Shown: in pieces, positions 13,176-36,393 of the stretch
Position numbering within the stretch: position 1 is the stretch's first letter
Layout of the letters: every line of letters begins with the position of its first letter
NCBI GenBank assembly: GCA_046861385.1
Contig: JBHHTW010000005.1
Span: 47,755-111,754, forward strand
Direction of reading: 5' to 3'
DNA from: Fidelibacterota bacterium
Lineage (GTDB): Bacteria; Fidelibacterota; Marinisomatia; Marinisomatales; TCS55
DNA: 64,000 nt
Translations under genes and position numbers: made by a program
Notes under the pieces: generated by a model
The model's input: the letters and a program-made list of their open reading frames with translations, nothing else
What the model was told of the DNA's origin: nothing
Databases searched by the model: none

Positions 13176-13307
13176 TTGAATTTTATTAATTTATTCAGCA
13201 TTGAAATTGAAATATGATTACGTAAATGTGTAAGTTTGTCTATCGAAATCGAACGTGAATATAGTAGTTCGGTTCCATCTTCTTTAATCTAATTATTAGG
13301 ATTCCCT

Positions 13308-15575
13308 GTGTTTGATTTAGAAATGATTAATCATGTCTATAAGACCATTGTAGATAATAGTTCACTAGCCCGAAACCTAATGGGCAGACCCTTGACACTT
13401 TCTGAAAAAATACTTTATTCTCATTTATTTGATAAAAACAGTGGGGAAAAATATACCCGAGGTAAGTCGTATGTTGAATTTGCTCCGGATCGAGTAGCCA
13501 TGCAGGACGCAACGGCTCAAATGGCACTTTTACAATTTATGATGGCCGGCAAGGATAAAGTGGCTGTGCCATCCACAGTTCACTGTGATCATTTAATTCA
13601 GGCAAAAGACAACGCTAATCTTGATTTGTCTAATGCCAAAAATATTAATGGTGAGGTGTATGATTTTCTTGAATCTGTATCCAATAGATACGGAATTGGT
13701 TTCTGGAAACCGGGAGCAGGGATTATCCATCAAGTGGTTTTGGAAAATTATGCATTCCCTGGCGGACTGATGATCGGGACCGATAGTCATACGGTAAATG
13801 CGGGTGGACTCGGTATGATTGCCATAGGTGTCGGCGGTGCTGATGCAGTGGATGTGATGGCAAATATGCCTTGGGAATTAAAATTTCCGAAAATGATTGG
13901 CATTCAATTGACTGGAGAACTGAGCGGGTGGACCTCTGCGAAAGATGTAATACTCAAAGTAGCAGGAATTCTTACGGTGAAGGGCGGAACAGGCGCTATC
14001 GTTGAATATTTTGGACCAGGCGCTGAAAAATTGTCCTGTACCGGAAAAGGCACTATTTGCAACATGGGGGCTGAAATTGGTGCAACTACTTCTGTGTTTG
14101 CTTACGACAAACAAATGGCAGCGTATTTGCGAGCGACAGGTCGAAGTGCCGTAGCAGATCTCGCCGATGACATTGCCAATTGTTTACGGGCCGACGATGA
14201 AGTTTATGAGAATCCAGAGAAATATTATGATCAGATAATTGAAATAAATTTATCTGAGCTGGAACCCCATTTAAATGGTCCATTTACACCGGATCGCGCA
14301 ACGCCTATTTCTGAAATGTCGAAGGCAGCCGCAGAAAATGGGTGGCCTACCAAAGTCGATGTAGGTTTAATTGGTTCCTGCACTAATTCATCTTATGAAG
14401 ATATATCACGAGCAGCTTATATTGCAAAGCAGGCTGTTCAAATGGGATTGAATACGAAAGCTGATTTTACAATTACTCCCGGATCGGAACAAGTAAGGTA
14501 TACAATTGAAAGAGATGGTTTTATTCAAATATTTAACGAATTAGGTGCCCAGGTGTTTGCCAATGCATGCGGACCATGTATCGGTCAATGGGCTCGCCCG
14601 GGATCGGAGCAAAAAGAAAAAAATACAATTGTCCATTCATTTAATCGAAATTTTTCGAAAAGAGCCGATGGAAATCCTAATACACATGCATTTGTGGCAT
14701 CTCCCGAGCTGGTAACCGCACTTGCGATTGCAGGCGATCTGACATTCAATCCATTAACAGACTCTCTCATCAATGAAAATGGAGAGTCTGTTATGTTGGA
14801 AATTCCCAAAGGTGATCAATTGCCTTCAAAAGGATTTGACGTAGAAGATTTAGGTTATCAAGAGCCATCGATTGATGGTTCCGGAAGTGAAATAACTGTT
14901 AATCCGGATTCGGAGCGATTGCAATTATTAACTCCATTCGAGCCATGGGATGGACAAAATATCACTGGAATGAAACTGCTGATAAAAGCGAAGGGTAAAT
15001 GTACAACAGATCATATCTCAATGGCTGGACCCTGGCTGAAATTCAGAGGTCATTTAGACAATATTTCAAATAATTTTCTGACTGGGGCCGAGAATTATTT
15101 TAATGAAAAAACGAATTGTGTAATAAACCAACTAACAGGAGAATATGGCTCTGTTCCGGATGTACAAAGAGCTTATAATTCTGCCAATATTCCAACGATT
15201 GTCGTTGGGGATGAAAATTTTGGTGAAGGCTCATCACGAGAGCATGCTGCAATGGAACCAAGGCATTTGGGCGTCAGGGTCGTTTTGGTCCGTTCTTTTG
15301 CTCGAATCCACGAGACCAATTTGAAAAAGCAGGGGATGTTAGCCTTAACATTCGCAGATAAATCGGATTATGATAAAATTCAGGAAAACGACATTATGGA
15401 CTTTATTGATCTGGACGAATTCACTCCAAATAAACCACTGACTTTAAGGGTTGTACATAAGGGAAATACTGATGATACAATTATGTGCAATCATAGTTAT
15501 AATCATACACAAATTAGTTGGTACAAGGCCGGATCCGCTCTCAATTTAGTTCGAAGCCAATTAAAGGAAATATAA
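13308..15575 (+). CDS. aconitate hydratase (mitochondrial-like type)
   Basis: [52 protein letters not shown]. Confidence 0.96.
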
Positions 15576-17152
15576 TGACAAAAATACTTGTTTCTGACCC
15601 GGTTACAGATGCCGGAATGGCCATTCTGCAAGATGCAGGATTTGAAGTAAAATATTTACCTGACTCGCCTCCCGAAGATAAAGCAGAAGCATGTAAAGAT
15701 GTTGCTGGTTGGGTCGTACGCAGCGGAACAAAAGTAACTGCTGAAATGATAGAGTCAGCCAATCAGTTACGAGTTATTGGCCGGGCAGGTGTTGGTGTAG
15801 ATAACATTGATATTCCCAAGGCCACGAGGAGAGGAATCCTGGTCATGAACACGCCCAATGCAAGCACATATTCTGCTGCAGAGCATACGATGGCGATGAT
15901 GTTGGCTCTTTCCAGAAATATACCCAAGGGTCATGGCGGTATTATGGATGGAAAATGGAATAGAAATGCGTTGGTTGGAACCGAATTACGGAATAAAACG
16001 TTGGGAGTTGTCGGTCTTGGAAAAATTGGTCGGGAGGTGATAAAGCGATGCCGTGCGTTTGATATGAATATTCTTGGTTTCGACCCTTATGTAAGTCAAG
16101 AAATGTTTACTGAGGAAGAAATTAAAATAGTAGATCTGGATAAACTAACACAAGTATCAGATTATATCACTGTTCATGTCCCATTGACAGATTCCACGCG
16201 GAGTCTATTTGATTATGAACGTCTATGCATCATGAAACCAACTGCACGGATTATCAATGTTGCCAGGGGGGGAGTGATTGATGAAGTTGGACTTGCTCAA
16301 GCCCTGAATGAGGGAAAAATAGCTGGAGCAGCTATCGATGTCTTCTCATCAGAGCCGGTAGATAAATCCAATCCATTGCTCCGTGCAAAAAATATCGTTT
16401 TAACCCCTCACCTTGGCGCATCAACCAAAGAAGCTAAAGAAGGGGTTAGCCAAGCCGTTTGTGAACAGGTTCGTGATTATTTGCTCAAAGATAAGCCAAT
16501 CAATGCTATAAATATGCCAATATCAAACTTGGCAAAACTAAAAGAAATTCAGCCTCATTTAGATTTGGCTGAAATAATAGGAAAACTGCAGAGTCAGCTT
16601 GGATCCAATGAAGTAAAAAAAATATATATTGAATGTGCCGGAAAGATGGATAAGGCAAAACCAACAGCTCTTGCATTTTTAAAGGGCTTTTTGGCAGACC
16701 GTGTTCAAGAAAATGTGAACTATATTAATGTCGAAACACTTGCTGGTAATCTTGGAATCAACATTGAATACAGTGTATCCACGGATAATGGAAACTACTC
16801 TAACGCTATAAAAACACTGGTAACTGATGAAAATCTGTCACATGAAATTAATGGGAGTGTTTTTGAAGGAAATCAATTGAGATTAGTAAACATTTTGGGT
16901 TTTGAAATGGATATTATTCCATTCGGCACTATGTTATTTATCCGGAATAAAGATTACCCCGGAGTCATCGGAAAAGTTGGAGCAACTTTAGGAGATGCAA
17001 ACGTTAATATTGGTGCTTATTTGTTAAATAGGTCGTCGGAAAATGGTGAAGCGTTTGCAGTAATTCGAGTAGACAATCCTGTATCAAATAAAACCATTGA
17101 AAAACTTTTTGAATTTCCTGAAATCATATCGCTCCATCAAATCATTTGCTAA
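15575..17152 (+). CDS. serA: D-3-phosphoglycerate dehydrogenase (long form with ACT domain)
   Basis: RAGVGVDNID, GLGKIG, INVARGG, TPHLGAST.EA, C-terminal DYPGVIGKVG ACT; ATG 15575 overlaps the aconitase TAA. Confidence 0.95.
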   Translation: MTKILVSDPVTDAGMAILQDAGFEVKYLPDSPPEDKAEACKDVAGWVVRSGTKVTAEMIESANQLRVIGRAGVGVDNIDIPKATRRGILVMNTPNASTYSAAEHTMAMMLALSRNIPKGHGGIMDGKWNRNALVGTELRNKTLGVVGLGKIGREVIKRCRAFDMNILGFDPYVSQEMFTEEEIKIVDLDKLTQVSDYITVHVPLTDSTRSLFDYERLCIMKPTARIINVARGGVIDEVGLAQALNEGKIAGAAIDVFSSEPVDKSNPLLRAKNIVLTPHLGASTKEAKEGVSQAVCEQVRDYLLKDKPINAINMPISNLAKLKEIQPHLDLAEIIGKLQSQLGSNEVKKIYIECAGKMDKAKPTALAFLKGFLADRVQENVNYINVETLAGNLGINIEYSVSTDNGNYSNAIKTLVTDENLSHEINGSVFEGNQLRLVNILGFEMDIIPFGTMLFIRNKDYPGVIGKVGATLGDANVNIGAYLLNRSSENGEAFAVIRVDNPVSNKTIEKLFEFPEIISLHQIIC

Positions 17153-24632: not shown

Positions 24633-24926
24633 ATGAGAATTATCGCAATTAGACCCTTAAGAAAATTTTGGAAAGAATATCATGACGCTGAGGTTCCCCT
24701 TAGAGCTTGGTATACAGAAGCAAAAGTCGCAAAATGGAGGAAACCGAATGATATTAAAGAGAAATATAGGTCAGTTAGCATCATTGCTAATAATAGGGCT
24801 GTATTTAACATTTCGGGGAATAAATACCGGTTAGTTGTTGCGATAAAATATGATTTCCAAATTGTATACATAAGGTTCATTGGGACTCATAAGCAATATG
24901 ATACAATAAATGCGAAGGAGATTTAA
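24633..24926 (+). CDS. higB: type II toxin, HigB family
   Basis: MRII...L..FW, W....DIK, RAVFNISGNKYRLVV.I.Y, YIRFIGTH.QYD. Confidence 0.92.
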   Translation: MRIIAIRPLRKFWKEYHDAEVPLRAWYTEAKVAKWRKPNDIKEKYRSVSIIANNRAVFNISGNKYRLVVAIKYDFQIVYIRFIGTHKQYDTINAKEI

Positions 24927-24929
24927 TAA

Positions 24930-25280
24930 ATGGTTATTAGACCCATTAGAAATGAAAAAGATTATAAAGCAACATTGCAGCAAATCGAGAAACTTTGGAA
25001 CTCGAGAATGGGATCACCTGAAGGAGATATTCTTGAAGTGCTAACAATATTGGTTGCTGATTATGAAAAAGAGCATTATGACATTTTTCCTCCAGGACCT
25101 ATAGGCGCTATCATGTTCCGTATGGAACAACTTGGTATGAAGCAAAAGGATTTGGGGGAATTGGTAGGTGGTTCGAATAGAGCCTCAGAATTGCTTCATG
25201 GTAAAAGAAAATTAACTGTGAAAATGATAAAAGTCATACATGAAGAATTAAACATACCTGCTGAGTCATTATTAGGATAA
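24930..25280 (+). CDS. higA: type II antitoxin, HigA family (HTH)
   Basis: IRPIRNE.DY, L..LV.DYE, FRMEQLGMKQKDL...SE.L.GKRKLT..MI; toxin-first order. Confidence 0.9.
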   Translation: MVIRPIRNEKDYKATLQQIEKLWNSRMGSPEGDILEVLTILVADYEKEHYDIFPPGPIGAIMFRMEQLGMKQKDLGELVGGSNRASELLHGKRKLTVKMIKVIHEELNIPAESLLG

Positions 25281-25452
25281 GAGTGCTAATGGGTGCAATA
25301 CCAAATTTTTGGTGATCTCTGTCATATAAGTTATTTGGCTTAATATAACAATATTGCAGTAAGCTATATACAAAAAGTATTCTTTAGTTATGTATTGTTC
25401 AATTTGTAATTAACTTTGAAGGTAGTGCAATGAGCAATAAATGGGAGTCAAT

Positions 25453-25812
25453 ATGAAAAATCCACCACTCTATCACTACCACGCTAAGGTAGTATCCGTT
25501 TATGATGGGGATACATGTACAGTCGATATTGATTTAGGGCTCAATGTTTGGGCTCGGGGAGAAAAAATTCGCCTGGCGCGCATAAATACTCCTGAACTTC
25601 GTAAAAAAGAAAGGCCAAAGGGATTAATATCGAGAGATTATCTCCGGAAGCGGATTTTGAATCAATCCATTGTTTTGGAGACGATAAAAGATAAAAAAGG
25701 GAAATATGGGCGCTATTTGGGTGAAATATGGGTTCAAACAAATAATAAAAATTATACAAATATCAATGATGAGTTAGTGATGGCAGGAATGGCAGAATAT
25801 AAATCCTATTAA
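25453..25812 (+). CDS. thermonuclease (SNase) family protein, no signal peptide
   Basis: VVSVYDGDT, IRLARINTPE, KGKYGRYLG, INDELV..G.A; GGGAG SD before ATG 25453. Confidence 0.88.
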   Translation: MKNPPLYHYHAKVVSVYDGDTCTVDIDLGLNVWARGEKIRLARINTPELRKKERPKGLISRDYLRKRILNQSIVLETIKDKKGKYGRYLGEIWVQTNNKNYTNINDELVMAGMAEYKSY

Positions 25813-26055: not shown

Positions 26056-27039
26056 ATGAATACCAAAAAAAGCTCGATATTACTATTGTTGATTATTGGG
26101 TTAATGATCACATCCTGTGAGGATGATAAAAATAAAGCTCCAATTACCGACCTAACTGTTGCGACGGTTTCCAGCGCACCAACACTTGATGGCGTTGGCA
26201 GTGATGCCGCTTGGGATCAGGCCGATGAATTGGTCGTTACAGTTGGGCTAGATGCATCTCATGCAAATGCTTTTGGTGAAATAGACGTAAGTTTAGCCGC
26301 GGTAACTGATGGCGACAATTTATACATTAAAGCCACATGGGCAGATGCTACAGAAAGCATTGATAAGAAACAATGGGAATATGAAAATGGTGCATGGTCA
26401 CAGTCAGGGAACGAAGACAGAATGTTTTTCTTCTTTGATATGGGTGAGAATGGCTCTGATAAAGCAGATTGTGCAACCATGTGTCATGTAGCAGAAGGTA
26501 AAATGTGGACATCTACTGGCATTGTTGATCAGTGGCATTGGAAAGCCCATCGTACCGCGCCCATTCACCATGCTGATGATAAACATATTAATAACGATTA
26601 TCAAGAATCAGATGGCACTCTCTACCATGACGGTGGACAACATGGCGATTCAAAAACAACAGGTTTGTACAATGATAACAAGGACGCAAATGGTCTTCCA
26701 ATTTACTCTGGTCCAATTACAGACGGACATTATCTCATTTTGCCCGAGGGACAAACTGCAGATTCATATTTCACACCTTTTGATAGCAGCACCACATCCA
26801 CCAGCTCTCTGATTCCGGGCTACTGGTTAAATGAAAATGCAGACGGCAGCAGGGCAGATGTGACTGCTTATTCTCAATATAGTAACGGTACTTGGACGGT
26901 TGAATTCAGCCGTGCTTTGAATACCGGGAATAGTGATGATGTTGTATTTGGTAGTGGCGATATTCAAGTAGTAATTGCAATTACGGACAACTCAGGTGGT
27001 GATCATAGTGGATCAGCTCCTTTCCTAATTAAATTCTAA
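26056..27039 (+). CDS. lipoprotein with ethylbenzene-dehydrogenase-gamma-like (EB_dh/DOMON-type) heme domain and CX3CH motif
   Basis: Lipobox ITSC; APTLDG...W, LYIKATWAD, EDR, CATMCH, DQWHWKA.R, GTWTVEFSR.L.TG. Confidence 0.8.
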   Translation: MNTKKSSILLLLIIGLMITSCEDDKNKAPITDLTVATVSSAPTLDGVGSDAAWDQADELVVTVGLDASHANAFGEIDVSLAAVTDGDNLYIKATWADATESIDKKQWEYENGAWSQSGNEDRMFFFFDMGENGSDKADCATMCHVAEGKMWTSTGIVDQWHWKAHRTAPIHHADDKHINNDYQESDGTLYHDGGQHGDSKTTGLYNDNKDANGLPIYSGPITDGHYLILPEGQTADSYFTPFDSSTTSTSSLIPGYWLNENADGSRADVTAYSQYSNGTWTVEFSRALNTGNSDDVVFGSGDIQVVIAITDNSGGDHSGSAPFLIKF

Positions 27040-27055
27040 ACAAGAATAATAAAAA

Positions 27056-27085
27056 TAGGGGTGATTTATTCACCCCTGTTTTTTT
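27056..27085 (+). terminator. intrinsic terminator
   Basis: TAGGGGTGA-TTTAT-TCACCCCTG followed by T7, preceded by an A-tract. Confidence 0.85.
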
Positions 27086-27129
27086 ATATTATATCCAATT
27101 CTATAATTAATAAAGTAAAGGAGAACTCA

Positions 27130-27705
27130 GTGAAAAATATATTGATAATGAGTATATGGGTAATGACAGCCTTGCTTTTTGGTGATGATAAAGCCGATAA
27201 GACAAATATATATGCCGGTGTGAAACGCTGTAAAGTATGTCATGAAACAGAAGATATGGGGAATCAATATACCGTTTGGGAGCACTCCAAGCATGCCAAA
27301 GCATATGAAACTTTATTAACAGACGAATCTGCAGAAATTGCTAAATCATGGGGACTCAGTCTCCCTGCGAATGAAGCACCGGAATGTTTAAAATGCCACG
27401 TAAGCGGGTATAATAATGAAAAAGCAGAATTCGGGAAAAAATTTAACAAAGAAGATGGCGTCCAATGTGAAAGCTGTCACGGACCGGGTGAAGCATATCG
27501 AAAAGAGGAAATCATGTGTGACCGTGAATTATCCCTCGCAAATGGACTGATTTTACCCAAACCGGAGGATTGTTTAACTTGCCATAATGAAGAAAGTCCC
27601 AAGTATAAAACATTTACTTATGAAGCCTATTATGCAAAAATGATTCATAAGAAAAACCCTGACTATAACTGTCCTTCAGATGAAGAAGAAGATGAAGATT
27701 GGTAG
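27130..27705 (+). CDS. periplasmic tetraheme cytochrome c (c554-like)
   Basis: GTG 27130 after AAGGAG; signal peptide; CKVCH, CLKCH, CESCH(GPG), CLTCH. Confidence 0.88.
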   Translation: MKNILIMSIWVMTALLFGDDKADKTNIYAGVKRCKVCHETEDMGNQYTVWEHSKHAKAYETLLTDESAEIAKSWGLSLPANEAPECLKCHVSGYNNEKAEFGKKFNKEDGVQCESCHGPGEAYRKEEIMCDRELSLANGLILPKPEDCLTCHNEESPKYKTFTYEAYYAKMIHKKNPDYNCPSDEEEDEDW

Positions 27706-27706
27706 T

Positions 27707-28216
27707 ATGATGGTGAGAGGTTCTATAAATATAATTAATCATATATTCATTTTATCCATAATGGGATTAATGATCGCCGGCTGCTCCAAAAAACCCATTA
27801 AGCAACCCATAGCCTACAACCACTCAATCCACGTTAATGATGCTGGATTGGATTGTACCGATTGCCATTCTGGAGCGGTAAATAAAATTCGAGCCACGTT
27901 GCCTTCTATTAAAAAGTGCAAATCGTGCCATTCAGAAATGCAGGGAGAAAGCATCGCAGAAACACTGGTAGTTAAAGCGGTTAACAATAAAGAAGAAATC
28001 CCTTGGCAACGAATATATCAACTCAAAGACCACGTATTCTTCTCACACCGCCGACATGTAACAGCAGGAAATCTATCCTGTGAATTATGTCATGGAAATG
28101 TAGAAGAAATGGTGGTGCCACCTAAACAGCCATTGATTCCAATATCCATGGATAATTGCATTAAATGCCATGATAGTAAATCAATATCAACCGATTGTCT
28201 GAATTGTCATGTCTGA
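27707..28216 (+). CDS. pentaheme cytochrome c, QrcA/ActA-like (lipobox)
   Basis: IAGC lipobox; QPIAYNHSIH, CTDCH, CKSCH, IPW.RIY.L.DHVFFSH..H, CELCH, CIKCH, CLNCH. Confidence 0.88.
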   Translation: MMVRGSINIINHIFILSIMGLMIAGCSKKPIKQPIAYNHSIHVNDAGLDCTDCHSGAVNKIRATLPSIKKCKSCHSEMQGESIAETLVVKAVNNKEEIPWQRIYQLKDHVFFSHRRHVTAGNLSCELCHGNVEEMVVPPKQPLIPISMDNCIKCHDSKSISTDCLNCHV

Positions 28217-30629
28217 AAAAAAAGTAATAAGTAGAAGAAAATTTTTAAAAATATCCGGTCTGGCTTCCGGAGGCGCTGCAATTGGTACTGCAGTTTTTTC
28301 ACAAGCGCTGGGAGTATCAGAAAAAGCAATTAATGTTCTACAGAATGGACCCGGAAAAGTATCTTGGCGAGCCACCGCATGCCGGCTATGTCCTGGCGGC
28401 TGCAGCCTGTCTGTAAAAAGGGTTGATGGAATTCCAATCGGTCTAAAAGGAAATGCTTTCTCGCCAATTAATAGAGGCGGTACGTGTCCTGCGGCATATG
28501 CTAACCTTGAATTACTTTACCATCCTGATCGATATACCGAACCCCTTGTTCGTCCCAATGGCGACAAGAACAAAGATGCGACTCCTGATTCTTGGAGGAA
28601 CGTCTTTAATAAAATAACTAATTCTCTCAATTCTTTAGTTGAAAATAACCAATCCCATAAAATTGCAATCATTAATAGTGATGATTCACCCATAATGGAA
28701 GAAGCATGGAGAAATTTTGCGAATTGGATTGGAACACCCCATTATTTTCAAGAAAAGCACTCCGGGGACTTTTCTAACTCTTCCTTTATTACACAAGGAA
28801 TGTTTTGTTCGCCAAAATACGATTTAATGAATTCTGATTGTATCGTGAGTCTTGGTGCCAATTTTCTTGAGGAAGGCGCTCCTGTCCATTTTAACCAATT
28901 GTTGAGCCAATTTAAAGATGTAAATAATATTTCTCGTAATAAAATGGTTTATGTGGGGCCTAGAGCAAATGCCACGGCTGCCAGTGCCCATAAATGGATC
29001 CCAATAAATCCCGATACTTGGGGGACCCTTGCATTAGGACTTGTTCATGTCCTCATTGATAAGCGTTATATCGACTTGGATTACTTTCGAACTCATACTC
29101 CTGATTTTTCTGATTGGGTTGATGAAAAAGGCCAAAAACATATTGGATTTGAAAATATAATTCGTTCTGAATTTCATCCTAAACTTGTAGAAGAAATTAC
29201 GGGCATTTCTGAGTCGCAAATTAATGAACTGGTCGAGTTAATTCATAGCCGTGAAACACCGGTTGTTTTGTTTGGATCAGAAGCTCTAGAGTCACCCCGA
29301 GGAGAACTCCATGGCTGGGCTGTTCAAAGTTTGAATTATCTCATTGGTAGTATTCAGCGTACCGGGGGTTGTTTTTTTACGGATAATATTGATATAGAAA
29401 AATTGCATATACAGGATTATACTGGTCAGGATATTCAAAGTTTGTTTACCTCTGATAAAAGTCATGCCTTGAATAAAGCATCTTTAGATATTTTTGCTAA
29501 AAAGGTCGGAAATAATTCTCATAATGATATAGAATTATTAATTATTAATAAAGCAAATCCGGTTTATTATGGCGAGGACAGAGAGAAATGGGAATCATTA
29601 TTGAAGCATATTCCAACTGTAATATTTATAGGAGATATTCCAAACGAAACCAGTTATCATGCAGATATAGTTCTTCCTGCCCATTCAGAATTTGAAAATT
29701 GGGATTTGGTTGAAGATATTCCCGGTGTAGCTGCTAAGGTTGCTGTCCTCCAAAGAGCAGTTATAAAACCAATGTATGGTACAAAAAGTAGTTATTCGAT
29801 CCTTAAATCGTTCGCCGATGGAATGAATAACAAAACCAATTCGTTTTTAAAAGGTGTTGATTCAAAATCGATTGTAAAAGAAAGACTGAAGAAAATTTAT
29901 CAGCCTAAACGAGGTCAATTATTTACATCCCAAACGACAGAGGAATGGAAAGATTTATATAATAATCATAAAAAAATAAAAATTTCCGATTCAAGAAAAA
30001 TTTTTATGAAGGGAATGTTGAAAACCGGCGGATGGTGGGATCCTTCCCTTGTGGGTCAGGCCGACCAAATAGAAATTGGCAAAAACAAGAAGGATCAATT
30101 CACTTTTCTAAAAAGAATCCTTGAATCATTTCAAGGTGAAGCATCAGATGAAGCTCAATTTCTGAAAGAACTTTTGGCTTCTAATACCTATCCAAAAAAT
30201 TCAAAAAAATATAATGCATCTGAGTTATCAGGCTTCCCACTGACGTTAATGTCCGGATATCCCATTACCAATCCGTACGGCAGGACTGTCTCTTCTCCAA
30301 CCATGGTGGAGACAATGGGAATTGTTCGGGAAATCTATTGGGAAACCTGGGCAGAGATTAACCCTGAAACTGCAGAAAAATATCACATCGCAGATGGAAT
30401 GATAATTCAATTAGATTCATCGGTGGGAAAAATTCAAGTTCGGGCAAGAGTCAGACCGATCATCCATCCGGATGTTGTCTATGTCCCCTTGGGACTCGGT
30501 CGTGATAATGTGGGAAGATTCACATCGAATAAGGGATCTGATCCTCGGAACTTAATGGTATCCCAACCAGAAATATATTCCGGAAATACAATTTTGTCCG
30601 GTACACCAATTAAAATAACGTTGATTTAG
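28209..30629 (+). CDS. Tat-exported molybdopterin-oxidoreductase-fold subunit, QrcB/ActB-like
   Basis: ISRRKFLK twin-arginine; CRLCPGGC...GTC FeS motif; NETSYHADIVLP; EINP.TA C-terminal domain. Confidence 0.85.
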   Translation: MSEKKVISRRKFLKISGLASGGAAIGTAVFSQALGVSEKAINVLQNGPGKVSWRATACRLCPGGCSLSVKRVDGIPIGLKGNAFSPINRGGTCPAAYANLELLYHPDRYTEPLVRPNGDKNKDATPDSWRNVFNKITNSLNSLVENNQSHKIAIINSDDSPIMEEAWRNFANWIGTPHYFQEKHSGDFSNSSFITQGMFCSPKYDLMNSDCIVSLGANFLEEGAPVHFNQLLSQFKDVNNISRNKMVYVGPRANATAASAHKWIPINPDTWGTLALGLVHVLIDKRYIDLDYFRTHTPDFSDWVDEKGQKHIGFENIIRSEFHPKLVEEITGISESQINELVELIHSRETPVVLFGSEALESPRGELHGWAVQSLNYLIGSIQRTGGCFFTDNIDIEKLHIQDYTGQDIQSLFTSDKSHALNKASLDIFAKKVGNNSHNDIELLIINKANPVYYGEDREKWESLLKHIPTVIFIGDIPNETSYHADIVLPAHSEFENWDLVEDIPGVAAKVAVLQRAVIKPMYGTKSSYSILKSFADGMNNKTNSFLKGVDSKSIVKERLKKIYQPKRGQLFTSQTTEEWKDLYNNHKKIKISDSRKIFMKGMLKTGGWWDPSLVGQADQIEIGKNKKDQFTFLKRILESFQGEASDEAQFLKELLASNTYPKNSKKYNASELSGFPLTLMSGYPITNPYGRTVSSPTMVETMGIVREIYWETWAEINPETAEKYHIADGMIIQLDSSVGKIQVRARVRPIIHPDVVYVPLGLGRDNVGRFTSNKGSDPRNLMVSQPEIYSGNTILSGTPIKITLI

Positions 30630-30639
30630 GGAGTGAATT

Positions 30640-31326
30640 ATGGCTAAATGGGGAATGGTCATTGACTTGAATAAATGCACGGGATGTGGATCCTGTGTAA
30701 ATTCATGTCGAATGGAAAATAATGTCCCCAATGTTGGCGATAAGGCTGCACAGGCAGGACGCGCCATGGATTGGATGCAAATCATTACTGAATATGAAGG
30801 TGAATATCCTAATATTCGAATAACTCATATACCGAGACCGTGCTTTCATTGTGAAAATCCTCCATGTACAAAGGTTTGCCCTGTACATGCCACATACCAG
30901 AATGATGACGGTTTGATTGGACAAATTTATTACCGTTGTATTGGATGTCGGTTTTGTATGGCAGCTTGCCCATATTCCGCAAAAACATTTAATTATAGTA
31001 AACCAAATATTCCGGAAGCATATGAGGATAATTTGAACCCGGATGTTTCTCGTAGAATGAATGGTGTGGTTGAAAAATGCAGTTTCTGTTCCCATCGATT
31101 GATTAAAGCAAAAGATGAAGCTCGTTTTGAGGGGAGAGAAATGCGTGAAGAAGACTACCAGCCGGCATGTGTGGAATCTTGTCCAACTGATGCAATTACA
31201 TTTGGTGATCTGGAGAATTCGGACCATCATGTTCATGAATTAAAACACTCAAACCGTGCATTTAGATTGGAAGAAGAATTGGGAACAGAACCTAAAGTCT
31301 ATTATCTAACGAAGGAAGATAGATAA
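30640..31326 (+). CDS. 4Fe-4S subunit, QrcC/NrfC/PsrB-like
   Basis: CTGCGSC..SC, CFHCENPPCTKVCP, CIGCRFCMAACPY, KCSFC...PACVESCP. Confidence 0.92.
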   Translation: MAKWGMVIDLNKCTGCGSCVNSCRMENNVPNVGDKAAQAGRAMDWMQIITEYEGEYPNIRITHIPRPCFHCENPPCTKVCPVHATYQNDDGLIGQIYYRCIGCRFCMAACPYSAKTFNYSKPNIPEAYEDNLNPDVSRRMNGVVEKCSFCSHRLIKAKDEARFEGREMREEDYQPACVESCPTDAITFGDLENSDHHVHELKHSNRAFRLEEELGTEPKVYYLTKEDR

Positions 31327-32672
31327 TGAATGAGCTACGCAAAGACCCGGATTATGCCCTTTACCGCCCTATATTAGTCAGTGACCGTCGATTTTATTGG
31401 GCGGTAGGCTTCTTATCTGTTGTGATTATTTGGGCATTGTATATGTATATACAGCAATTGATAAACGGCCTTGAGGTCACCGGAATGAACAATACGGTAA
31501 CTTGGGGATTTTATATTATCAATTTTGTTTTCTTTATCGGTATCAGCCATGCCGGGACACTGATTTCGGCCATACTAAGACTTTCCCAGGCAGAATGGCG
31601 TCGACCCATTACCAGAATGGCCGAGGTTATTACAGCTATTGTGTTGATGATTGGCGGTTTACACCCAATCATTGACTTGGGTCGACCTGACCGCGTTTTA
31701 AATGTGTTTACGTTCGGAAGATTACAGTCTCCCTTATTATGGGATGTAACAGCCATTTCACTGTATTTTACCGCCAGCACGGTATATCTTTTTGTTCCCA
31801 TGATCCCGGACATTGCTCTTCTTCGGGATCGGACCAATACAAAATTAAAATGGCTTTATACATTTTTAAGCTGGGGATATCAAGGAACCGAACGACAAAA
31901 ACATATATTGGAAAGAGCCATTACGATTTTGATGGTTGCAGTAATACCAATTGCCGTCAGTGTTCACACTGTTATTTCTTACATATTTTCAATGACACTC
32001 CAATCCGGTTGGCATAGCACCATTTTTGGCCCCTATTTTGTGACGGGCGCCATATTTTCCGGTACGGCTACCTTATTGGTCGTAATGATTTTTTTCCGAA
32101 AGTTTTTTCATCTGGAAAATTATTTAAAAGAAATTCATTTTCAATACATGGGAATCCTGCTTCTGGTTTTCTCATTATTTTGGACTTATTTCACATTTAG
32201 TGAGTACCTCACAGGTGTTTATGGGAATGAACCCCAGGAAATGAACGTTATTATGTTCAAATTTACGGGACCTTATGCCCCTTATTTCTGGGCAATGGTT
32301 ATATGTAATTTTGTGGTTCCTGTGATAGTGCTATCTTTTAAGAAATTAAAAAAGATCCCGGGCATTTTGTTTGCTTCAATTTGCGTCATCATCGGCATGT
32401 GGTTGGAACGCCTGACCATTATTGTTCCCTCCTTATCCAATCCGCGGTTACCGATCATTAGTGAGCCATACATTCCTTCGATGACCGAGTGGGCGTTATT
32501 TGCCGGTGGTATCGCTGTATTTTGTTTGTTTTTCCTATTATTTTCAAAAATTTTCCCAATAATATCAATCTGGGAAATAAGAGAAGGCCGTGCAGAAGGA
32601 TTGGATGAAGCAAAAGAAAGGTTGGATTCTTACTTGCCCGATTCGGATATGATCAACAAGGAGGTGATCTAA
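31326..32672 (+). CDS. NrfD/PsrC-family quinone-binding membrane subunit (ActC/QrcD-like)
   Basis: WGFYIINFVFFIGISHAGTLISAIL, R.AE, DLGRP.R, SPLLWD, SVHT, GWHSTIF.PYFV.GAIFSG, GMWLER. Confidence 0.92.
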   Translation: MNELRKDPDYALYRPILVSDRRFYWAVGFLSVVIIWALYMYIQQLINGLEVTGMNNTVTWGFYIINFVFFIGISHAGTLISAILRLSQAEWRRPITRMAEVITAIVLMIGGLHPIIDLGRPDRVLNVFTFGRLQSPLLWDVTAISLYFTASTVYLFVPMIPDIALLRDRTNTKLKWLYTFLSWGYQGTERQKHILERAITILMVAVIPIAVSVHTVISYIFSMTLQSGWHSTIFGPYFVTGAIFSGTATLLVVMIFFRKFFHLENYLKEIHFQYMGILLLVFSLFWTYFTFSEYLTGVYGNEPQEMNVIMFKFTGPYAPYFWAMVICNFVVPVIVLSFKKLKKIPGILFASICVIIGMWLERLTIIVPSLSNPRLPIISEPYIPSMTEWALFAGGIAVFCLFFLLFSKIFPIISIWEIREGRAEGLDEAKERLDSYLPDSDMINKEVI

Positions 32673-32923
32673 TGGAAAAGAGAAAAAGAGTAACACCATT
32701 CTATATTTTATTTCTTCAAATTCTTAGCATCTTAATTATCTGGCTTCTATTTGTTGGGGTCAATTTTTGGATTTTTAATCTCATATCCTTATCGAGATAT
32801 TTACAGGATGCACAAAATGCCACTTTGGTTATATCCCTTATTATTCTGCCTATATTTGGACTATTAGCATGTGTATTAACCTATGTATTTATAGGCTTGA
32901 GAAAAGGGAGAATTACTCATTAG
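32672..32923 (+). CDS. small two-TM membrane protein
   Basis: GGAGG SD, translationally coupled to the NrfD gene, two hydrophobic segments. Confidence 0.75.
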   Translation: MEKRKRVTPFYILFLQILSILIIWLLFVGVNFWIFNLISLSRYLQDAQNATLVISLIILPIFGLLACVLTYVFIGLRKGRITH

Positions 32924-32942
32924 GCTTTTCAAGTCGAAATGG

Positions 32943-34181
32943 TTGCTGTTATTACTGCTGACCAGCCTTTCTTATGGCAGTAAGTTTTACGGATATTTTT
33001 CAACGAATACATATACATTCTCTCGCAAAAATCTAGACGATAGTACATTGGTTCATATACGCCTTTACCAGTCTGTTTGGCTTCAGGGGAGGGATGTTCT
33101 TATAAAAAAAAGCCGGTTAAATATCTCCGGTGTATTTTACATGGACCCTGTAAACCCCTTTCACTATGGAGACGTAGAAAATTCAACTGATGGAGATTAT
33201 GTATTCCAAATATATAATTTTAATTATTCCACATCTTGGTTTTCAGATAGAATGAAGGTGAATATTGGTCGTCAATTTCAATATTCAGTTTCTGATGCAG
33301 GTCGATTGGACGGTATATCGACAGATTACACATTTCGGCAACTAAAATTCAAAGGATTCGCTGGGTTATATGTTCCTGCATCCGGCATGACGGAAAATCC
33401 ATCTGATGATCATTTTTATGGTGGTGAAATTTCCTGGAAAAAATCTAAATCGTTTGATTTGAAACTTGGTTATTCAGATAAATCACATTCCAGGGAAATT
33501 TATCATTCAAATGCGGTTTTCAAGGATGTGGAAGTTCCACCATCGATTCGTCAGCGAGTTGGAATCCAAAGCAGTCTTAAAAGGGGGCACCTGACCTTTT
33601 ATGCCAGAACCAGGCACCGCATTCGTGAATTTGAATTAGACGACGCCACATTCCAAACCACCTATCATGGAAATAGGGATCAACGGCTACAAAACGTTGT
33701 TTTTGAATATAATCTTCGAAAACCGCAAATACCTGATAATTCAATATTTTCTGTTTTTGATTCTTATGCCTCTCAAGAGTTTTCGTTAAGAGGGCGCTTA
33801 TCATTGGTGAAGAAAATATCCGGATGGTTTAATTTTCGACAGGTTCTGTTTAATAATGATCAATCCTCAATAATATTATTGGGAGTGGGAATGTCCGTGG
33901 TACGTGCAGAATTTGTTCGTCAGGATGGATATGGCGGCAGCTCAAACCGAATGGTTGTCGGAGCTCGGAAAAAAATGGGGAAACTGAATTTATCCAGTCG
34001 TCTTTCTTTGGGGAATTACCGCTTAATCGAAGGAAAGTGGAATGATTTATCTACTGTTACTTTTTCAGCATCTTATCCCATGTGGAAAAAATTTGAAATC
34101 AATTCTGAAATCCATGTATTGAAAAATAAATATTATTCAAATGATACAAGATTACAGATGGGCATCAGGTACCGGTTATGA
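32943..34181 (+). CDS. putative outer-membrane beta-barrel protein
   Basis: Signal peptide, alternating amphipathic strands, IGRQF...LDG motif, C-terminal LQMGIRYRL beta-signal-like end, no heme motifs. Confidence 0.7.
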   Translation: MLLLLLTSLSYGSKFYGYFSTNTYTFSRKNLDDSTLVHIRLYQSVWLQGRDVLIKKSRLNISGVFYMDPVNPFHYGDVENSTDGDYVFQIYNFNYSTSWFSDRMKVNIGRQFQYSVSDAGRLDGISTDYTFRQLKFKGFAGLYVPASGMTENPSDDHFYGGEISWKKSKSFDLKLGYSDKSHSREIYHSNAVFKDVEVPPSIRQRVGIQSSLKRGHLTFYARTRHRIREFELDDATFQTTYHGNRDQRLQNVVFEYNLRKPQIPDNSIFSVFDSYASQEFSLRGRLSLVKKISGWFNFRQVLFNNDQSSIILLGVGMSVVRAEFVRQDGYGGSSNRMVVGARKKMGKLNLSSRLSLGNYRLIEGKWNDLSTVTFSASYPMWKKFEINSEIHVLKNKYYSNDTRLQMGIRYRL

Positions 34182-35344
34182 GAAATACTAAAGGATTTAT
34201 AATCTATATTAGTATCATTGGCTGTGTAAACATTGTTCATAGTGCGACATCGGATCCAATCATTCAATTTAGTCATGACCTTCATGTTGCTGATTTGGAA
34301 ATAAAGTGTACAAAGTGTCATAATCCAAAAGTACTCAAAACGAGCATGGGTTCAGATGACGTTATTCTACCCACGGAAAAACGCTGTATGAAATGTCATA
34401 AAGTGTGGAAGAAAAAAGGGGAATGTGAAAATTGTCATTTGAAAGAACCTCCTTATGAAACTTTTCCTAAAGTAACCCGAATTTTTAAATTTCCACATAA
34501 AACTCATTGGGTTGATCAAAAAATTGAATGCAATGAATGTCATGGAAACATGGCTGGTGTTGATAATTTTCCTCCCATCCCGGTTATGGATGATTGTATG
34601 TCATGTCATGCAGAGAAACACGCACCTGAATATTGCTCTTCCTGCCACGATAATGTCGCATATTTACGTCCTAAAGATCATTCGGAAGCCTGGCTCACTG
34701 ATCATGATTTAGCTGCATTGTCCAATGCTTCTGATTGTCAAATTTGTCATTCCCAAAATACATGCGACAATTGCCATAGCGGCGGTCTACTCGGATTTGA
34801 TGAATTACCAAAGATGAATCCGGTACCAGGTTATCGTCCCGGAGCAATTGTCAATAAAATGTTATTAAATAGCAATCATGCCTTAGACTATGTTTACTCC
34901 CATGGGCTGGATGCAAGTACAAAAGCAAAAGATTGCAGTGTGTGTCATGAATCGCCAGAATTTTGTACCGCTTGCCATCAGAACAAGGACGAACAGATTT
35001 TAAATAAGCCCGATTTTCATGGCGGATTGGACTGGGGAGCAGTTCTATATAAAGAGGATACGGATTTTGCCAATGATATCACGGGCGGTGTCCATGCGGA
35101 AATGGCGAGGAAAGATATTGAACTTTGTCAATCTTGCCACGATGTGGAAGGGGCAGACCCCACTTGTATCAGGTGTCATGCGGACAGAGATGGAATTCAA
35201 AATACAGATCCAAAAACTCACGCAGCAGGATTTATGAAAAATGTCCAGGGCGATTGGTGTACAGAACCGGTCTCAATGTGTTTTGTGTGTCATACCCCGG
35301 AGGAAAGCAAGACAAACGGCTTTTGCGGATATTGCCATAATTGA
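34178..35344 (+). CDS. 14-heme periplasmic cytochrome c
   Basis: 14 CxxCH counted: CTKCH CMKCH CENCH CNECH CMSCH CSSCH CQICH CDNCH CSVCH CTACH CQSCH CIRCH CFVCH CGYCH; FSH..H and FPH..H c3/c7-type distal His motifs. Confidence 0.92.
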   Translation: MRNTKGFIIYISIIGCVNIVHSATSDPIIQFSHDLHVADLEIKCTKCHNPKVLKTSMGSDDVILPTEKRCMKCHKVWKKKGECENCHLKEPPYETFPKVTRIFKFPHKTHWVDQKIECNECHGNMAGVDNFPPIPVMDDCMSCHAEKHAPEYCSSCHDNVAYLRPKDHSEAWLTDHDLAALSNASDCQICHSQNTCDNCHSGGLLGFDELPKMNPVPGYRPGAIVNKMLLNSNHALDYVYSHGLDASTKAKDCSVCHESPEFCTACHQNKDEQILNKPDFHGGLDWGAVLYKEDTDFANDITGGVHAEMARKDIELCQSCHDVEGADPTCIRCHADRDGIQNTDPKTHAAGFMKNVQGDWCTEPVSMCFVCHTPEESKTNGFCGYCHN

Positions 35345-35345
35345 T

Positions 35346-35729
35346 ATGAAAATAATCAACACATCAATCAGTATTTTTATCATTTCTTTGATTATAGGGT
35401 GTTCAGAATTAGATAAATCATTTAAAGAGCCTTTGCCAGATAGGGTAACATATAAATCCCATATTAAAGCTATTCTTGATAGAAGTTGTGTCCGGTGTCA
35501 TGGAGGATCGGAACAAATTGTCCCAGATGTTAATTTTTCATCTTATAGTGAAATTAAGCTGCTAATCGGGACAGATGTTTCATCCGATCTTATTGTGCCG
35601 GGGAATCAATCTTCCGGTTTGCTAAGAAAAACCAAACCTGGCGGAAGTATGAATCTGAACCTCAATGATAACAGAGATTACGATTTGCTTTATCAATGGA
35701 TTGTCCTTGATAGTGTAGCACAAAACTAA
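35346..35729 (+). CDS. monoheme cytochrome c lipoprotein
   Basis: ATG 35346, lipobox IIGC, IL.RSCVRCHGG, IVPG..S.L, WI. Confidence 0.8.
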   Translation: MKIINTSISIFIISLIIGCSELDKSFKEPLPDRVTYKSHIKAILDRSCVRCHGGSEQIVPDVNFSSYSEIKLLIGTDVSSDLIVPGNQSSGLLRKTKPGGSMNLNLNDNRDYDLLYQWIVLDSVAQN

Positions 35730-35739
35730 AGCAAATACA

Positions 35740-35793
35740 GAGCAGATCTGGTGCGCTTGCCACAACGGTATGTTTGACTTGACCGGCAAGAAA
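35740..35793 (+). pseudogene. remnant of a Rieske [2Fe-2S] protein gene
   Basis: Intergenic DNA translates to EQIWCACHNGMFDLTGKK, matching Rieske box II (C-x-C-H-x-x-x-F/Y-D-x-x-G); in-frame stop at 35716, no box I. Confidence 0.72.
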
Positions 35794-35802
35794 GGAATAA
35801 AC

Positions 35803-36393
35803 ATGATTAAATACGTAACAGGTTTTTTACTCCTCGGAAGTATTGTATGGACTCAGCAACCAGAATATGTAGGAACGAATAAGTGTAAAGCTTGCCACTC
35901 CAGCAAGAAGAAAGGAGCCCAATACAAACTTTGGAAAGAAACGAAACACGCCAAGGCATTTGACCTGCTTCTCACTGAAGAAGCAAAACAGATAGCGAAA
36001 GAGAGGGGTTTAGCAAATACACCGGATAAAGCTCCGGAATGTTTAGAGTGTCATACCGTTGGGTTTGGCTCCGGCGGATATGAAATAATGGATGGGGAAT
36101 TCTGGTCTCCAGCTGAGGATGATCGGGATGGGAAGAAAGCCGTAAAACGAATGGAAAATCTTAAAAATGTTGGGTGTGAAAATTGTCATGGCCCTGGCAG
36201 TGCTTATAAGAAAAAGAAAATTATGGAAGCAATTTTTGCAGGAACTGTATCAGGCGATGAATATGGTTTATCAAAAGCGACCGAAGTAACTTGTAAAAAA
36301 TGTCATAACGAACGCAGTCCTTCCTATAAACCTTTTAATTTTGAAGAAAGAATAGCTGAAATTACTCACCCGTTTCCTGATAGTATGAAATAA
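35803..36393 (+). CDS. periplasmic tetraheme cytochrome c (c554-like), paralog of 27130..27705
   Basis: ATG 35803 after AAGGA; signal peptide; CKACH, CLECH, CENCH(GPG), CKKCH. Confidence 0.88.
   Translation: MIKYVTGFLLLGSIVWTQQPEYVGTNKCKACHSSKKKGAQYKLWKETKHAKAFDLLLTEEAKQIAKERGLANTPDKAPECLECHTVGFGSGGYEIMDGEFWSPAEDDRDGKKAVKRMENLKNVGCENCHGPGSAYKKKKIMEAIFAGTVSGDEYGLSKATEVTCKKCHNERSPSYKPFNFEERIAEITHPFPDSMK

Follow-up and report, generated by a model that had tools for sequence, protein, structure and literature searches.

A candidate route from the quinone pool to the cell surface in a Fidelibacterota bacterium: a hybrid quinol oxidoreductase and a porin-cytochrome-type unit in one gene cluster

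Does a bacterium of the Marinimicrobia encode, within a single gene cluster, a respiratory route that leads from the quinone pool of the inner membrane to the cell surface? This question is raised by eleven co-directional open reading frames (ORFs), numbered here g1 to g11, at positions 26056-36393 (+ strand) of a 64-kb stretch of DNA from a Fidelibacterota bacterium (64,000 nucleotides of contig JBHHTW010000005.1, assembly GCA_046861385.1), referred to below as the window. On balance, our findings tip slightly in favor of such a route, composed of two units and carrying electrons outward, and extracellular electron transfer by this cluster can be inferred, with good support, from its gene content.

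The cluster is indeed marked by its heme-binding motifs. From g1 to g11, the ORFs hold 0, 4, 5, 0, 0, 0, 0, 0, 14, 1, and 4 CxxCH motifs, i.e., 28 in total. A six-frame count over the window (127,996 codons) gave 36 such motifs, 28 of which lie inside the five cluster ORFs, and none was found in the 26 other large ORFs of the window that were checked; this concentration is therefore not due to chance. A sequence-only reading of this DNA had listed the eleven genes, the 28 motifs and the families of the subunits, all of which were borne out by ORF coordinates, motif counts and Pfam/NCBIfam assignments (Table 1). It had also described the genes as mostly overlapping. This is true of g2 to g10, which by mechanical ORF starts overlap or lie at most 10 nt apart, except for 19 nt before g8, but not of g1, which is set apart by a hairpin; the gap between g10 and g11 is 40 nt.

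Table 1. Features of the cluster, with their position and strand in the window and the basis of each assignment.
Feature	Position	Strand	Basis
g1, EB_dh/DOMON-type heme-domain lipoprotein, acidic	26056..27039	+	Pfam EB_dh, lipobox
Terminator-like hairpin between g1 and g2	27051..27083	+	14 pairs and T run
g2, secreted c554-type tetraheme	27130..27705	+	Pfam Cytochrome_C554 (3.2e-19), 4 CxxCH
g3, ActA/QrcA-like pentaheme lipoprotein	27680..28216	+	PDB ActA chains, lipobox
g4, Tat-exported Mo-bisPGD-fold subunit, ActB1/QrcB position	28209..30629	+	Pfam, NCBIfam
g5, FeS subunit, ActB2/QrcC position, four complete Cys motifs	30640..31326	+	NCBIfam, PDB
g6, ActC-like NrfD-family membrane subunit, predicted quinone-interacting	31326..32672	+	PDB ActC chains
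g7, 83-aa two-helix membrane protein	32672..32923	+	Two hydrophobic segments
g8, 22-strand outer-membrane beta-barrel, Pcc-type porin candidate	32919..34181	+	AlphaFold2 model
g9, secreted 14-heme cytochrome	34178..35344	+	14 CxxCH, Sec signal peptide
g10, monoheme lipoprotein, position of Pcc outer-membrane cytochrome	35346..35729	+	1 CxxCH, lipobox
g11, second secreted c554-type tetraheme	35770..36393, probable start 35803	+	Pfam Cytochrome_C554 (4.4e-16)

The outer-membrane part of the route would be built around g8 and g9. The g8 protein matched no Pfam or NCBIfam family at E ≤ 0.01. Its relatives amounted to 79 cluster representatives at E ≤ 1e-3 among 1.84 billion, and a profile made from a 60-row alignment retrieved 20 proteins from a 5.8-billion-protein set, where a first search had given 16. 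The AlphaFold2 (AF2) model, also obtained from a 60-row alignment, showed 22 long strands with a predicted local distance difference test (pLDDT) value of 94.4 and a predicted template modeling (pTM) score of 0.86, and Foldseek found only outer-membrane barrels in the PDB (usher pores, Occ porins, and AlgE; E 3e-11 to 8e-8), in line with the transmembrane barrel previously proposed for 32943..34181. The strands have alternating hydrophobic (mean Kyte-Doolittle value +0.86) and polar (-1.52) faces, and the polar ones abound in Arg and Lys, with approximately 28 Arg/Lys vs. 11 Asp/Glu in a count made by eye with faces assigned by hydrophobicity. The calculated isoelectric point is 9.71 for mature g8 vs. 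5.69 for g9, heme propionates not being counted. The latter has 388 residues (365 without its Sec signal peptide), or approximately 26 residues per heme, and 16 of 16 orthologs keep all 14 of its CxxCH motifs, along with 11 other His and two Met that are likewise invariant; its start overlaps the stop of g8 by 4 nt. The nearest Atlas clusters of both proteins belong to Ignavibacteriota and Bacteroidota and have matching lengths (scores 0.97-0.98), the neighbor of the barrel reaching a structural template modeling score (TM-score) of 0.87.

Prediction of g8 and g9 as a complex gave interaction scores (ipSAE) of 0.50, 0.44, and 0.66 (median 0.50), the best of three controls giving 0.00; the runs shared at least 50% of their contacts, with a partner pLDDT of at least 61. 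The ipSAE mark is passed by 116 of 157 solved complexes and by two of 215 mismatched pairs, and values of 0.60 or less are seen in only 18 of those 157 solved complexes and in both passing mismatches. These calibration counts are rough, our own alignments having been used for g8 and g9, and memory of solved MtrAB-like complexes may contribute to the scores. The model thus gives weak support to a g8-g9 complex.

Comparison with related loci showed that this pair is the stable core of the system. One profile scan of genome contigs with a 14-row barrel alignment gave 20 loci (L001, L002, and so on), of which 18 come from metagenome-assembled genomes labeled Marinimicrobia/Fidelibacterota, FCB group or "uncultured bacterium" and one is labeled Bacteroidetes; the host, formerly described as an FCB-type heterotroph, keeps its FCB placement and can be refined to Marinimicrobia/Fidelibacterota. 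In the closest locus, L001, identity ranges from 75 to 95% per protein. The barrel gene is followed by the 14-heme gene in all 19 loci with downstream sequence, and ACIII-like genes (ACIII, alternative complex III) directly precede it in 16 of the 18 with upstream sequence, all of g2 to g7 being present in the twelve loci long enough to show them. The genes are therefore co-conserved, as had been expected. In the remaining two loci, L016 and L017, g2 to g7 are lacking and g1 stands directly before the barrel; after g10, L016 has ORFs of the sizes of a Rieske protein, a cytochrome b and a 9-heme cytochrome, and L017 has the first and last of these. Both quinol modules occur in L002, L006, L009, and L015, as confirmed by Pfam in L002 (Rieske protein, cytochrome b, and membrane-anchored 9-heme cytochrome at 12936-15726, between g10 and g11) and as judged from ORF sizes in the other three, while L003 and L008 have a gap of similar size (~3 kb) at this place. 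The ACIII-like module is found alone in the window, L001, and L013. In characterised systems, ACIII-type and Rieske/cytochrome b modules are both quinol:cytochrome c oxidoreductases. Given this pattern of presence, the barrel/14-heme/lipoprotein unit is the constant element and the quinol oxidoreductase an exchangeable feeder. The two tetrahemes follow this division: g2 is found wherever g3 to g7 occur and is missing from L016 and L017, and g11, present in both, travels with the barrel unit and, where present, with the Rieske/cytochrome b unit. By contrast, none of 11 queried flanking genes of the window was found in any of the 20 loci, so that the neighborhood is not conserved although the cluster is.

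The feeder present in the window, g2 to g7, is a hybrid: it is neither a canonical ACIII nor Qrc, Psr or Arr. Its membrane subunit g6, the sole NrfD gene of the cluster, aligned over its full length (residues ~21-433) with the ActC chains of four solved ACIII (8k9e_C, 3.3e-74; 6lod_C; 6btm_C; 6f0k_C, 7.3e-70), and gave 40.8 bits with the QrcD model of NCBIfam (cut-off 570) and 119 bits with DsrP. The pentaheme g3, in which basic or neutral residues come after the lipobox Cys, likewise matched the ActA chains in the PDB (8k9e_A, 1.3e-22; 6f0k_A, 2.8e-20; 6btm_A and 6lod_A; range to 5.9e-18), with 83.7 bits for QrcA (cut-off 180). The FeS subunit g5 matched the C-terminal FeS domain of ActB (6f0k_B, 3.9e-55) and gave 300.1 bits with QrcC (cut-off 400) and 187 bits with DsrO. 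It should bind four 4Fe-4S clusters, since 15 of 15 orthologs share all 16 of its Cys and C103 aligns with a Thr in the ActB chains of four of four solved ACIII; the site with Thr is presumably that of the high-potential 3Fe-4S cluster of ACIII. The g4 subunit combines Molybdopterin, Molydop_binding, and Fe4S4 domains with a twin-arginine (Tat) signal (TIGR01409, 18.0 bits, cut-off 16.7), and its best NCBIfam model was QrcB (238.4 bits, cut-off 440). Finally, 28 columns are invariant among 15 orthologs of the small protein g7, and a motif in the loop that joins its helices is part of these. The protein belongs to no known family and, searched against PDB sequences singly or as a profile, retrieved no ACIII chain at E ≤ 10. 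Its gene occupies the position of actD in act operons, is seen in 16 of 18 loci with upstream sequence and is absent where the ACIII-like module is absent.

The description of this module as Qrc/ACIII-like passes over real differences, namely the four full Cys motifs of g5, the conserved FS0 of g4, an N-terminal cluster motif of four Cys, and the new two-helix subunit g7. PDB searches with g6, g7, and g10 upheld the view that ActD, ActE, and ActF are not recognisable here, ActF chains matching g6 as paralogs only (3e-10 to 6e-5) and g10 retrieving nothing ACIII-related at E ≤ 10. No subunit of the cluster reached the equivalog cut-offs of NCBIfam for Qrc, Arr, Phs, Ttr, Dsr or Nrf, and this outcome favors the earlier interpretation over orthology to a characterised, purely periplasmic reductase system.

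From a mechanistic point of view, the first unit (g2 to g7) would act as a stripped-down ACIII/Qrc hybrid and the second (g8 to g11, with g1) as a conduit of the porin-cytochrome (Pcc) type of Geobacter and Ignavibacterium. On the periplasmic side of g6, quinol would give up its electrons, which would travel via the four clusters of g5, and perhaps FS0 of g4, to the pentaheme g3. Soluble tetrahemes g2 and g11 would then carry them to the 14-heme g9, an acidic protein supposed to sit inside the basic barrel g8, and finally to g10 and g1 on the outer face. The acceptor would be insoluble or macromolecular, such as Mn/Fe oxides, humic matter or a partner cell. What the analysis establishes is the genes with their families and folds, the barrel, the heme motifs and the co-conservation; that g8 and g9 form a complex, that g1 and g10 are exposed at the surface, which way the electrons flow and what takes them up are what we infer here. 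Oxidation of quinol with electrons leaving the cell is the most likely direction, because g6 is ActC-like rather than QrcD-like and because the alternative module of the relatives is of the Rieske/cytochrome b type.

Several findings weigh against this proposed outward route. The window encodes no large surface multiheme cytochrome, g10 and g1 being the only candidates for the outer face. MtrB was absent from the top 50 fold matches of g8, neither g8 nor g9 matched the Mtr/Dms family models (MtrB/PioB, DmsE), and the C-alpha radius estimated for 22 strands (~20 Å, vs. ~24 Å for 26) makes the barrel narrower than MtrB; it would be tight for a single heme chain, yet plausible. The score of the g8-g9 complex was weak, and the AF2 model of g9 from 16 orthologs was unusable (pLDDT 38.6). 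With FS0 in g4 and four clusters in g5, the module is wired like a catalytic molybdoenzyme, and g4 could be a real reductase or oxidase of a soluble substrate. The likeness of the barrel pair to the Pcc of Ignavibacterium is one of described architecture. As for surface exposure, the acidic residues after a lipoprotein Cys, which we take to be a surface-export signal of Bacteroidota, are a lead only. The sequence-only reading had regarded the locus as a self-contained extracellular electron transfer chain. "Self-contained" is doubtful, since the window lacks both a large surface multiheme and the Rieske/cytochrome b module added in most relatives. The chain itself agrees with the fold of g8, the co-conservation of the genes and the low reductase scores, and it keeps a conditional wording, in view notably of the weak g8-g9 score.

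The two lipoproteins of the barrel unit, g10 with one CxxCH and g1 with a C-x3-C-H motif, deserve attention as putative terminal proteins. No Pfam family matched g10, and its best NCBIfam model, the LIC11213 lipoprotein, gave only 22 bits. BLAST nevertheless found its orthologs after the 14-heme gene in 14 of the 15 loci extending that far, the fifteenth, L013, having at this place a 115-aa ORF for a one-heme lipoprotein (by position and motif). The g1 protein is acidic (isoelectric point 4.26) and matched Pfam EB_dh (6.6e-28); a profile of nine orthologs matched NxrC (7b04_C, 4.6e-9) and EbdC (2ivf_C, 0.069). Its M150 aligns with Met108 of EbdC, which we take to be a heme ligand, and C139, C143, H144, M150, and H317 are invariant in nine of nine sequences. 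The C-x3-C-H lies six residues before M150 and is a possible 29th c-type heme site. Two or three acidic residues come right after the lipid-anchor Cys of g1 in eight of eight orthologs, and we propose that g1 is a surface-exposed terminal redox protein. A bolder version of the outward route, doubtful though not far-fetched, would be a minimal conduit whose surface terminal is this EB_dh/DOMON lipoprotein bearing a covalent heme (C-x3-C-H by a Met ligand), fed by an undescribed ACIII/Qrc hybrid whose cofactor-less Mo-fold subunit keeps FS0 as electron exit. Pelagic Marinimicrobia would then use acceptors outside the cell for respiration, or exchange electrons with particles or with cells of a partner.

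Electrons could also flow inward, being taken up from extracellular Fe(II), Mn(II), reduced humics, a cathodic mineral or a partner cell, and passed through the c554-type cytochromes to a terminal oxidase elsewhere in the genome or, in the manner of Qrc, into the quinone pool. The match of g2 and g11 to the c554 family is consistent with this, if the c554 of Nitrosomonas carries electrons towards the quinone pool as we assume. The four full Cys motifs of g5 point the same way, in that loss of what is presumably a high-potential 3Fe-4S site would suit lower-potential traffic, as does the fact that g3, g4, and g5 all found their best NCBIfam models, albeit below cut-off, in Qrc. Moreover, the oxidising systems MtoAB and PioAB typically have no large surface cytochrome, in the excerpt of Shi et al. 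(2014) on which we draw (PMC4245776), and neither has the window. We nevertheless consider inward flow improbable: g6 resembles ActC and not QrcD, the alternative module of the relatives normally oxidises quinol, the flanks are those of a heterotroph (aconitase, 2-oxoacid:ferredoxin oxidoreductase, malic enzyme, peptidases), and no carbon-fixation or oxidase gene lies within the 64-kb window.

Just as improbable, in our opinion, is a purely periplasmic chain in which g2 to g7 would be an equivalent of complex III, g2, g9, and g11 would feed oxidases or N-oxide reductases elsewhere in the genome, and the barrel would serve as a common porin, in assembly or as an anchor. Aerobic and denitrifying chains do usually rely on ACIII or Rieske/cytochrome b complexes as quinol:cytochrome c oxidoreductases, and L006 and L015 carry, at the place of g1, a class-I dihaem cytochrome c (Pfam Cytochrome_CBB3) of the type that serves cbb3 oxidases. 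The weak complex prediction and the fold matches of g8, which are generic porins and ushers rather than MtrB, would also suit such a chain. However, a barrel family without any porin Pfam signature adjoins the 14-heme gene in 19 of 19 loci, here with an overlap of 4 nt, the charges of the two proteins are complementary, and 14 hemes in 365 residues suggest a wire rather than a diffusible carrier. In addition, a candidate cell-surface multiheme cytochrome is encoded in L009 a short way upstream of the cluster (806-3562): it has 918 aa and 16 CxxCH motifs and carries FlgD_ig and the type IX secretion domain Por_Secre_tail. L016 has a 9-heme protein with a PKD domain. The same architecture is classed as Pcc in the same excerpt (PMC4245776), which also speaks against a purely periplasmic chain.

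The third alternative concerns g4, which with g5 and g6 might form a catalytic Mo/W-bisPGD enzyme of the Arr/Psr/Phs/Ttr lineage acting on a soluble oxyanion of arsenic, sulfur, selenium or iodine, with the cytochromes as side branches and the barrel as substrate entry. The best PDB match of g4 is indeed the catalytic subunit ArrA (6cz7_A, 1.1e-43, residues 49-780), ActB of ACIII being matched at only 1e-13 (8k9e_B, residues 6-273). The FS0 motif (C58, C61, C65, and C93) is present in 25 of 25 family members sampled from 289 matches and makes, with the 16 Cys of g5, the complete electron path of a working molybdoenzyme; the family also keeps the classic ...ET..AD.VLP....E segment of the Mo-bisPGD fold, and g4 bears a Tat signal. 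On the other hand, the Cys that we take to be the Mo ligand of ArrA falls on a gap in g4, and across the 25 relatives this segment varies in length and sequence, without any conserved Cys, Ser or Asp. Two further motifs, presumably DPR and an NP after glycine in working enzymes, read GPR and NF in the Marinimicrobia clade of the family. NCBIfam scores remained far from the cut-offs of ArrA (181/1600 bits), PhsA (160/694), and TtrA (48/1750), and each locus shows better conservation of g5 and g6 than of g4 (75 and 74% identity vs. 53% in L013). Since, in addition, ten-helix ActC-type NrfD proteins pair with non-standard "catalytic" subunits (PMC6303296, in the part considered) and the barrel unit occurs without g4 to g6 in L016 and L017, we give even less credence to such an enzyme. 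Judging by sequence, g4 is most likely cofactor-less, like QrcB and ActB1 as they are described in that part of PMC6303296, and its family may be an unrecognised class of Mo-fold scaffolds. The 289 members, collected at E ≤ 1e-10, come from Acidobacteria, Bdellovibrionota, Chloroflexi, Deltaproteobacteria, and Ignavibacteria, and their annotation is generic only. Two other identities were discarded: g1, g4, and g5 are not the subunits of a type II DMSO reductase (alpha-beta-gamma), as the alpha-subunit model TIGR03479 gave only 74.6 bits over parts of g4, g5 belongs with the NrfC/ActB2 proteins and L016 and L017 have g1 in the absence of g4 and g5, and the published psrABC of Marinimicrobia differs in gene order and Tat signal.

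Concerning gene starts, the GTG at 27130 is most likely that of g2, rather than the mechanical GTG at 27061, because orthologs have 191 aa from the equivalent GTG and because the hairpin covers the 27061 start. The hairpin may mean that g1 is transcribed alone or that read-through is attenuated; a promoter scan found 44 sites vs. 43.9 in shuffled sequence, i.e., no excess. For g8, the ATT at 32919 is the most likely start, the mechanical ORF beginning at TTG 32943, since the upstream in-frame codons supply the missing basic part and restore a normal signal peptide; with this start, the 19-nt gap before g8 becomes an overlap. The ATT is kept in L001 (~9960-10004) and L002 (~9965-10010), both of which have no ATG, GTG or TTG there (window 32898-32945), and in L003 and L008 a GTG precedes it. 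The g10 gene starts at 35346, which yields a lipoprotein signal peptide, rather than at 35241.

The flanking genes are of the housekeeping kind. Upstream of the cluster, the window encodes aconitase, phosphoglycerate dehydrogenase, a sigma-70 factor, an M23 peptidase, a radical-SAM/TRAM methylthiotransferase-like protein, and LapA, TPR, and SPOR proteins. Directly before g1 (24633-25812) come a HigB-type toxin gene, its partner gene (116 aa, no family), and a small staphylococcal-nuclease-like gene, all three of them included in the 11 flanking genes that no related locus shares. Downstream lie a 2-oxoacid:ferredoxin oxidoreductase pair and malic enzyme. Farther away, at 9396-13175 (- strand), a 1259-aa C25 (gingipain-type) peptidase ends in FlgD_ig, as in type IX secretion cargo, and fits an FCB-group organism able to place proteins on its surface. 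A TonB-dependent receptor (54915-57272) with an N-terminal CarboxypepD_reg domain, of the SusC-like type of Bacteroidota, adjoins an OPT oligopeptide transporter and adenosine deaminase. In the related loci, further large cytochromes were observed downstream of g11 (L002, 16713-19947; L006, 16993-18906; L015, 16655-21165), among them 17-heme proteins of 637-836 aa with an NapC/NirT-type N-terminus, and L002 also has there a 6-heme lipoprotein with a short collagen-like Gly-X-Y run. Rrf2-family regulators lie inside related clusters and MerR-family ones beside them (L006, 12760-13245; L009, 12724-13188; L013, 2624-3082; L016, 8378-8830; L017, 7892-9496), and L017 has a methyl-accepting chemotaxis protein downstream; none of these three is present in the window, and they may be controls that respond to redox state or metals.

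Few uncultured bacteria of the deep and oxygen-deficient ocean are as common as the Marinimicrobia (SAR406), whose energy metabolism is discussed mainly in terms of oxygen, nitrogen oxides and "polysulfide reductase" in the excerpts available to us (PMC5688066; PMC3906813). Our literature search found no report joining Marinimicrobia or Fidelibacterota with extracellular electron transfer, and none of the matches listed linked Marinimicrobia/SAR406 to a porin-cytochrome; in the excerpts returned for Marinimicrobia and "multiheme cytochrome," no such claim was made and Marinimicrobia figured for phylogeny only. A Pcc-type conduit and a new ACIII/Qrc hybrid in one operon, in a phylum for which no such report was found, are best regarded as a further form of known systems. 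A conduit wired to the quinone pool would add particulate Mn/Fe oxides, humic matter, or partner cells to the possible acceptors or donors of Marinimicrobia. Should the minimal conduit ending in the EB_dh lipoprotein prove true, extracellular electron transfer would be a trait of one of the most abundant uncultured phyla of the dark and oxygen-poor ocean. The related loci, with one barrel/14-heme unit joined to an ACIII-like module, a Rieske/cytochrome b module or both, also offer a natural experiment in modular bioenergetics, and in the cluster one sees an intermediate form linking catalytic molybdoenzymes with the ActB/QrcB scaffolds, which have no cofactor.

Among known systems, the barrel/14-heme pair is probably of the Pcc type known from Ignavibacterium album rather than a new invention, judging from its architecture. 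The putative outer cytochrome g10 has a single heme, whereas the outer-membrane cytochrome of Geobacter sulfurreducens, which we take to be OmcB, is a 12-heme protein. This heme number for the G. sulfurreducens Pcc, like the other features of Pcc given here, comes from the excerpt of Shi et al. (2014) (PMC4245776): porins of Geobacter-type Pcc have 18-22 predicted strands and their periplasmic cytochromes 5-14 hemes, and some clusters lack an outer-membrane cytochrome. In I. album, porin IALB_1839 is accompanied by IALB_1838, a periplasmic cytochrome of 400 aa and 14 hemes, by the outer-membrane cytochrome IALB_1837 with atypical CX3-15CH motifs and by the periplasmic cytochrome IALB_1840. The 22 strands of g8 lie inside the above range, g9 (388 aa, 14 hemes) is close to IALB_1838 in size and heme number and likewise adjoins the porin gene, and the unit has a lipoprotein cytochrome next to this pair, further periplasmic cytochromes alongside and a CX3-type heme motif in g1. 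Apart from the single heme of g10, it differs in its EB_dh-type heme lipoprotein, in having a quinol oxidoreductase in the same operon and in its pelagic Marinimicrobia host. With MtrCAB, MtoAB, PioAB, and DmsEF, the cluster would share the principle of a multiheme cytochrome passing through an outer-membrane barrel, with adjacent genes, but it matches none of their family models, has 14 hemes instead of 10 and encodes no MtrC-like decaheme.

The inner-membrane module shares with ACIII, as represented by the solved structures 6F0K, 6BTM, 6LOD, and 8K9E, an ActC-like NrfD protein, an ActA-like pentaheme, the C-terminal FeS domain of ActB and the gene order A-B-C. By contrast, ActB is here split into g4 and g5, g4 is nearer to ArrA/QrcB than to ActB1 and has FS0, g5 has a Cys where the four solved ActB have a Thr, no ActD, ActE or ActF is recognisable and the window has no oxidase genes. 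With Qrc, it has in common that B and C are separate subunits in an assembly of four parts, that the best NCBIfam models of g3, g4, and g5 are QrcA, QrcB, and QrcC, and that the Mo-fold subunit has no recognisable Mo ligand; yet the scores of g3 to g6 are all below cut-off (83.7/180, 238/440, 300/400, and 40.8/570), and the membrane subunit is ActC-like. According to the part of PMC6303296 considered here, QrcD is found only in Deltaproteobacteria, Act oxidises menaquinol while Qrc reduces menaquinone, and QrcC has a 3Fe-4S cluster beside the quinone site; the corresponding motif of g5 has all four Cys. ArrAB(C), PsrABC/PhsABC, and TtrABC are set apart by equivalog scores far below cut-off and by a ligand position that is a gap in g4, in a segment not conserved among its relatives. 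The psrABC genes of Marinimicrobia (PMC3906813; PMC5688066) have the order psrBCA and a PsrA without Tat signal in the excerpts of PMC3906813, vs. the order A-B-C and a Tat signal on g4; the present cluster and the "polysulfide reductase" of Marinimicrobia are different operons. A comparable genomic arrangement is that of the clusters of ACIII-like and multiheme genes of MBNT15 and Melioribacter roseus, for which Fe(III) reduction has been proposed as a prediction (PMC9386147). There, as here, an ACIII-like module lies far from oxidase genes and beside multihemes and is read as a route to extracellular iron, but these clusters keep genes of the ActD/E/F type, and the section describing them (PMC9386147) mentions no barrel partner such as the one that g8 would provide.

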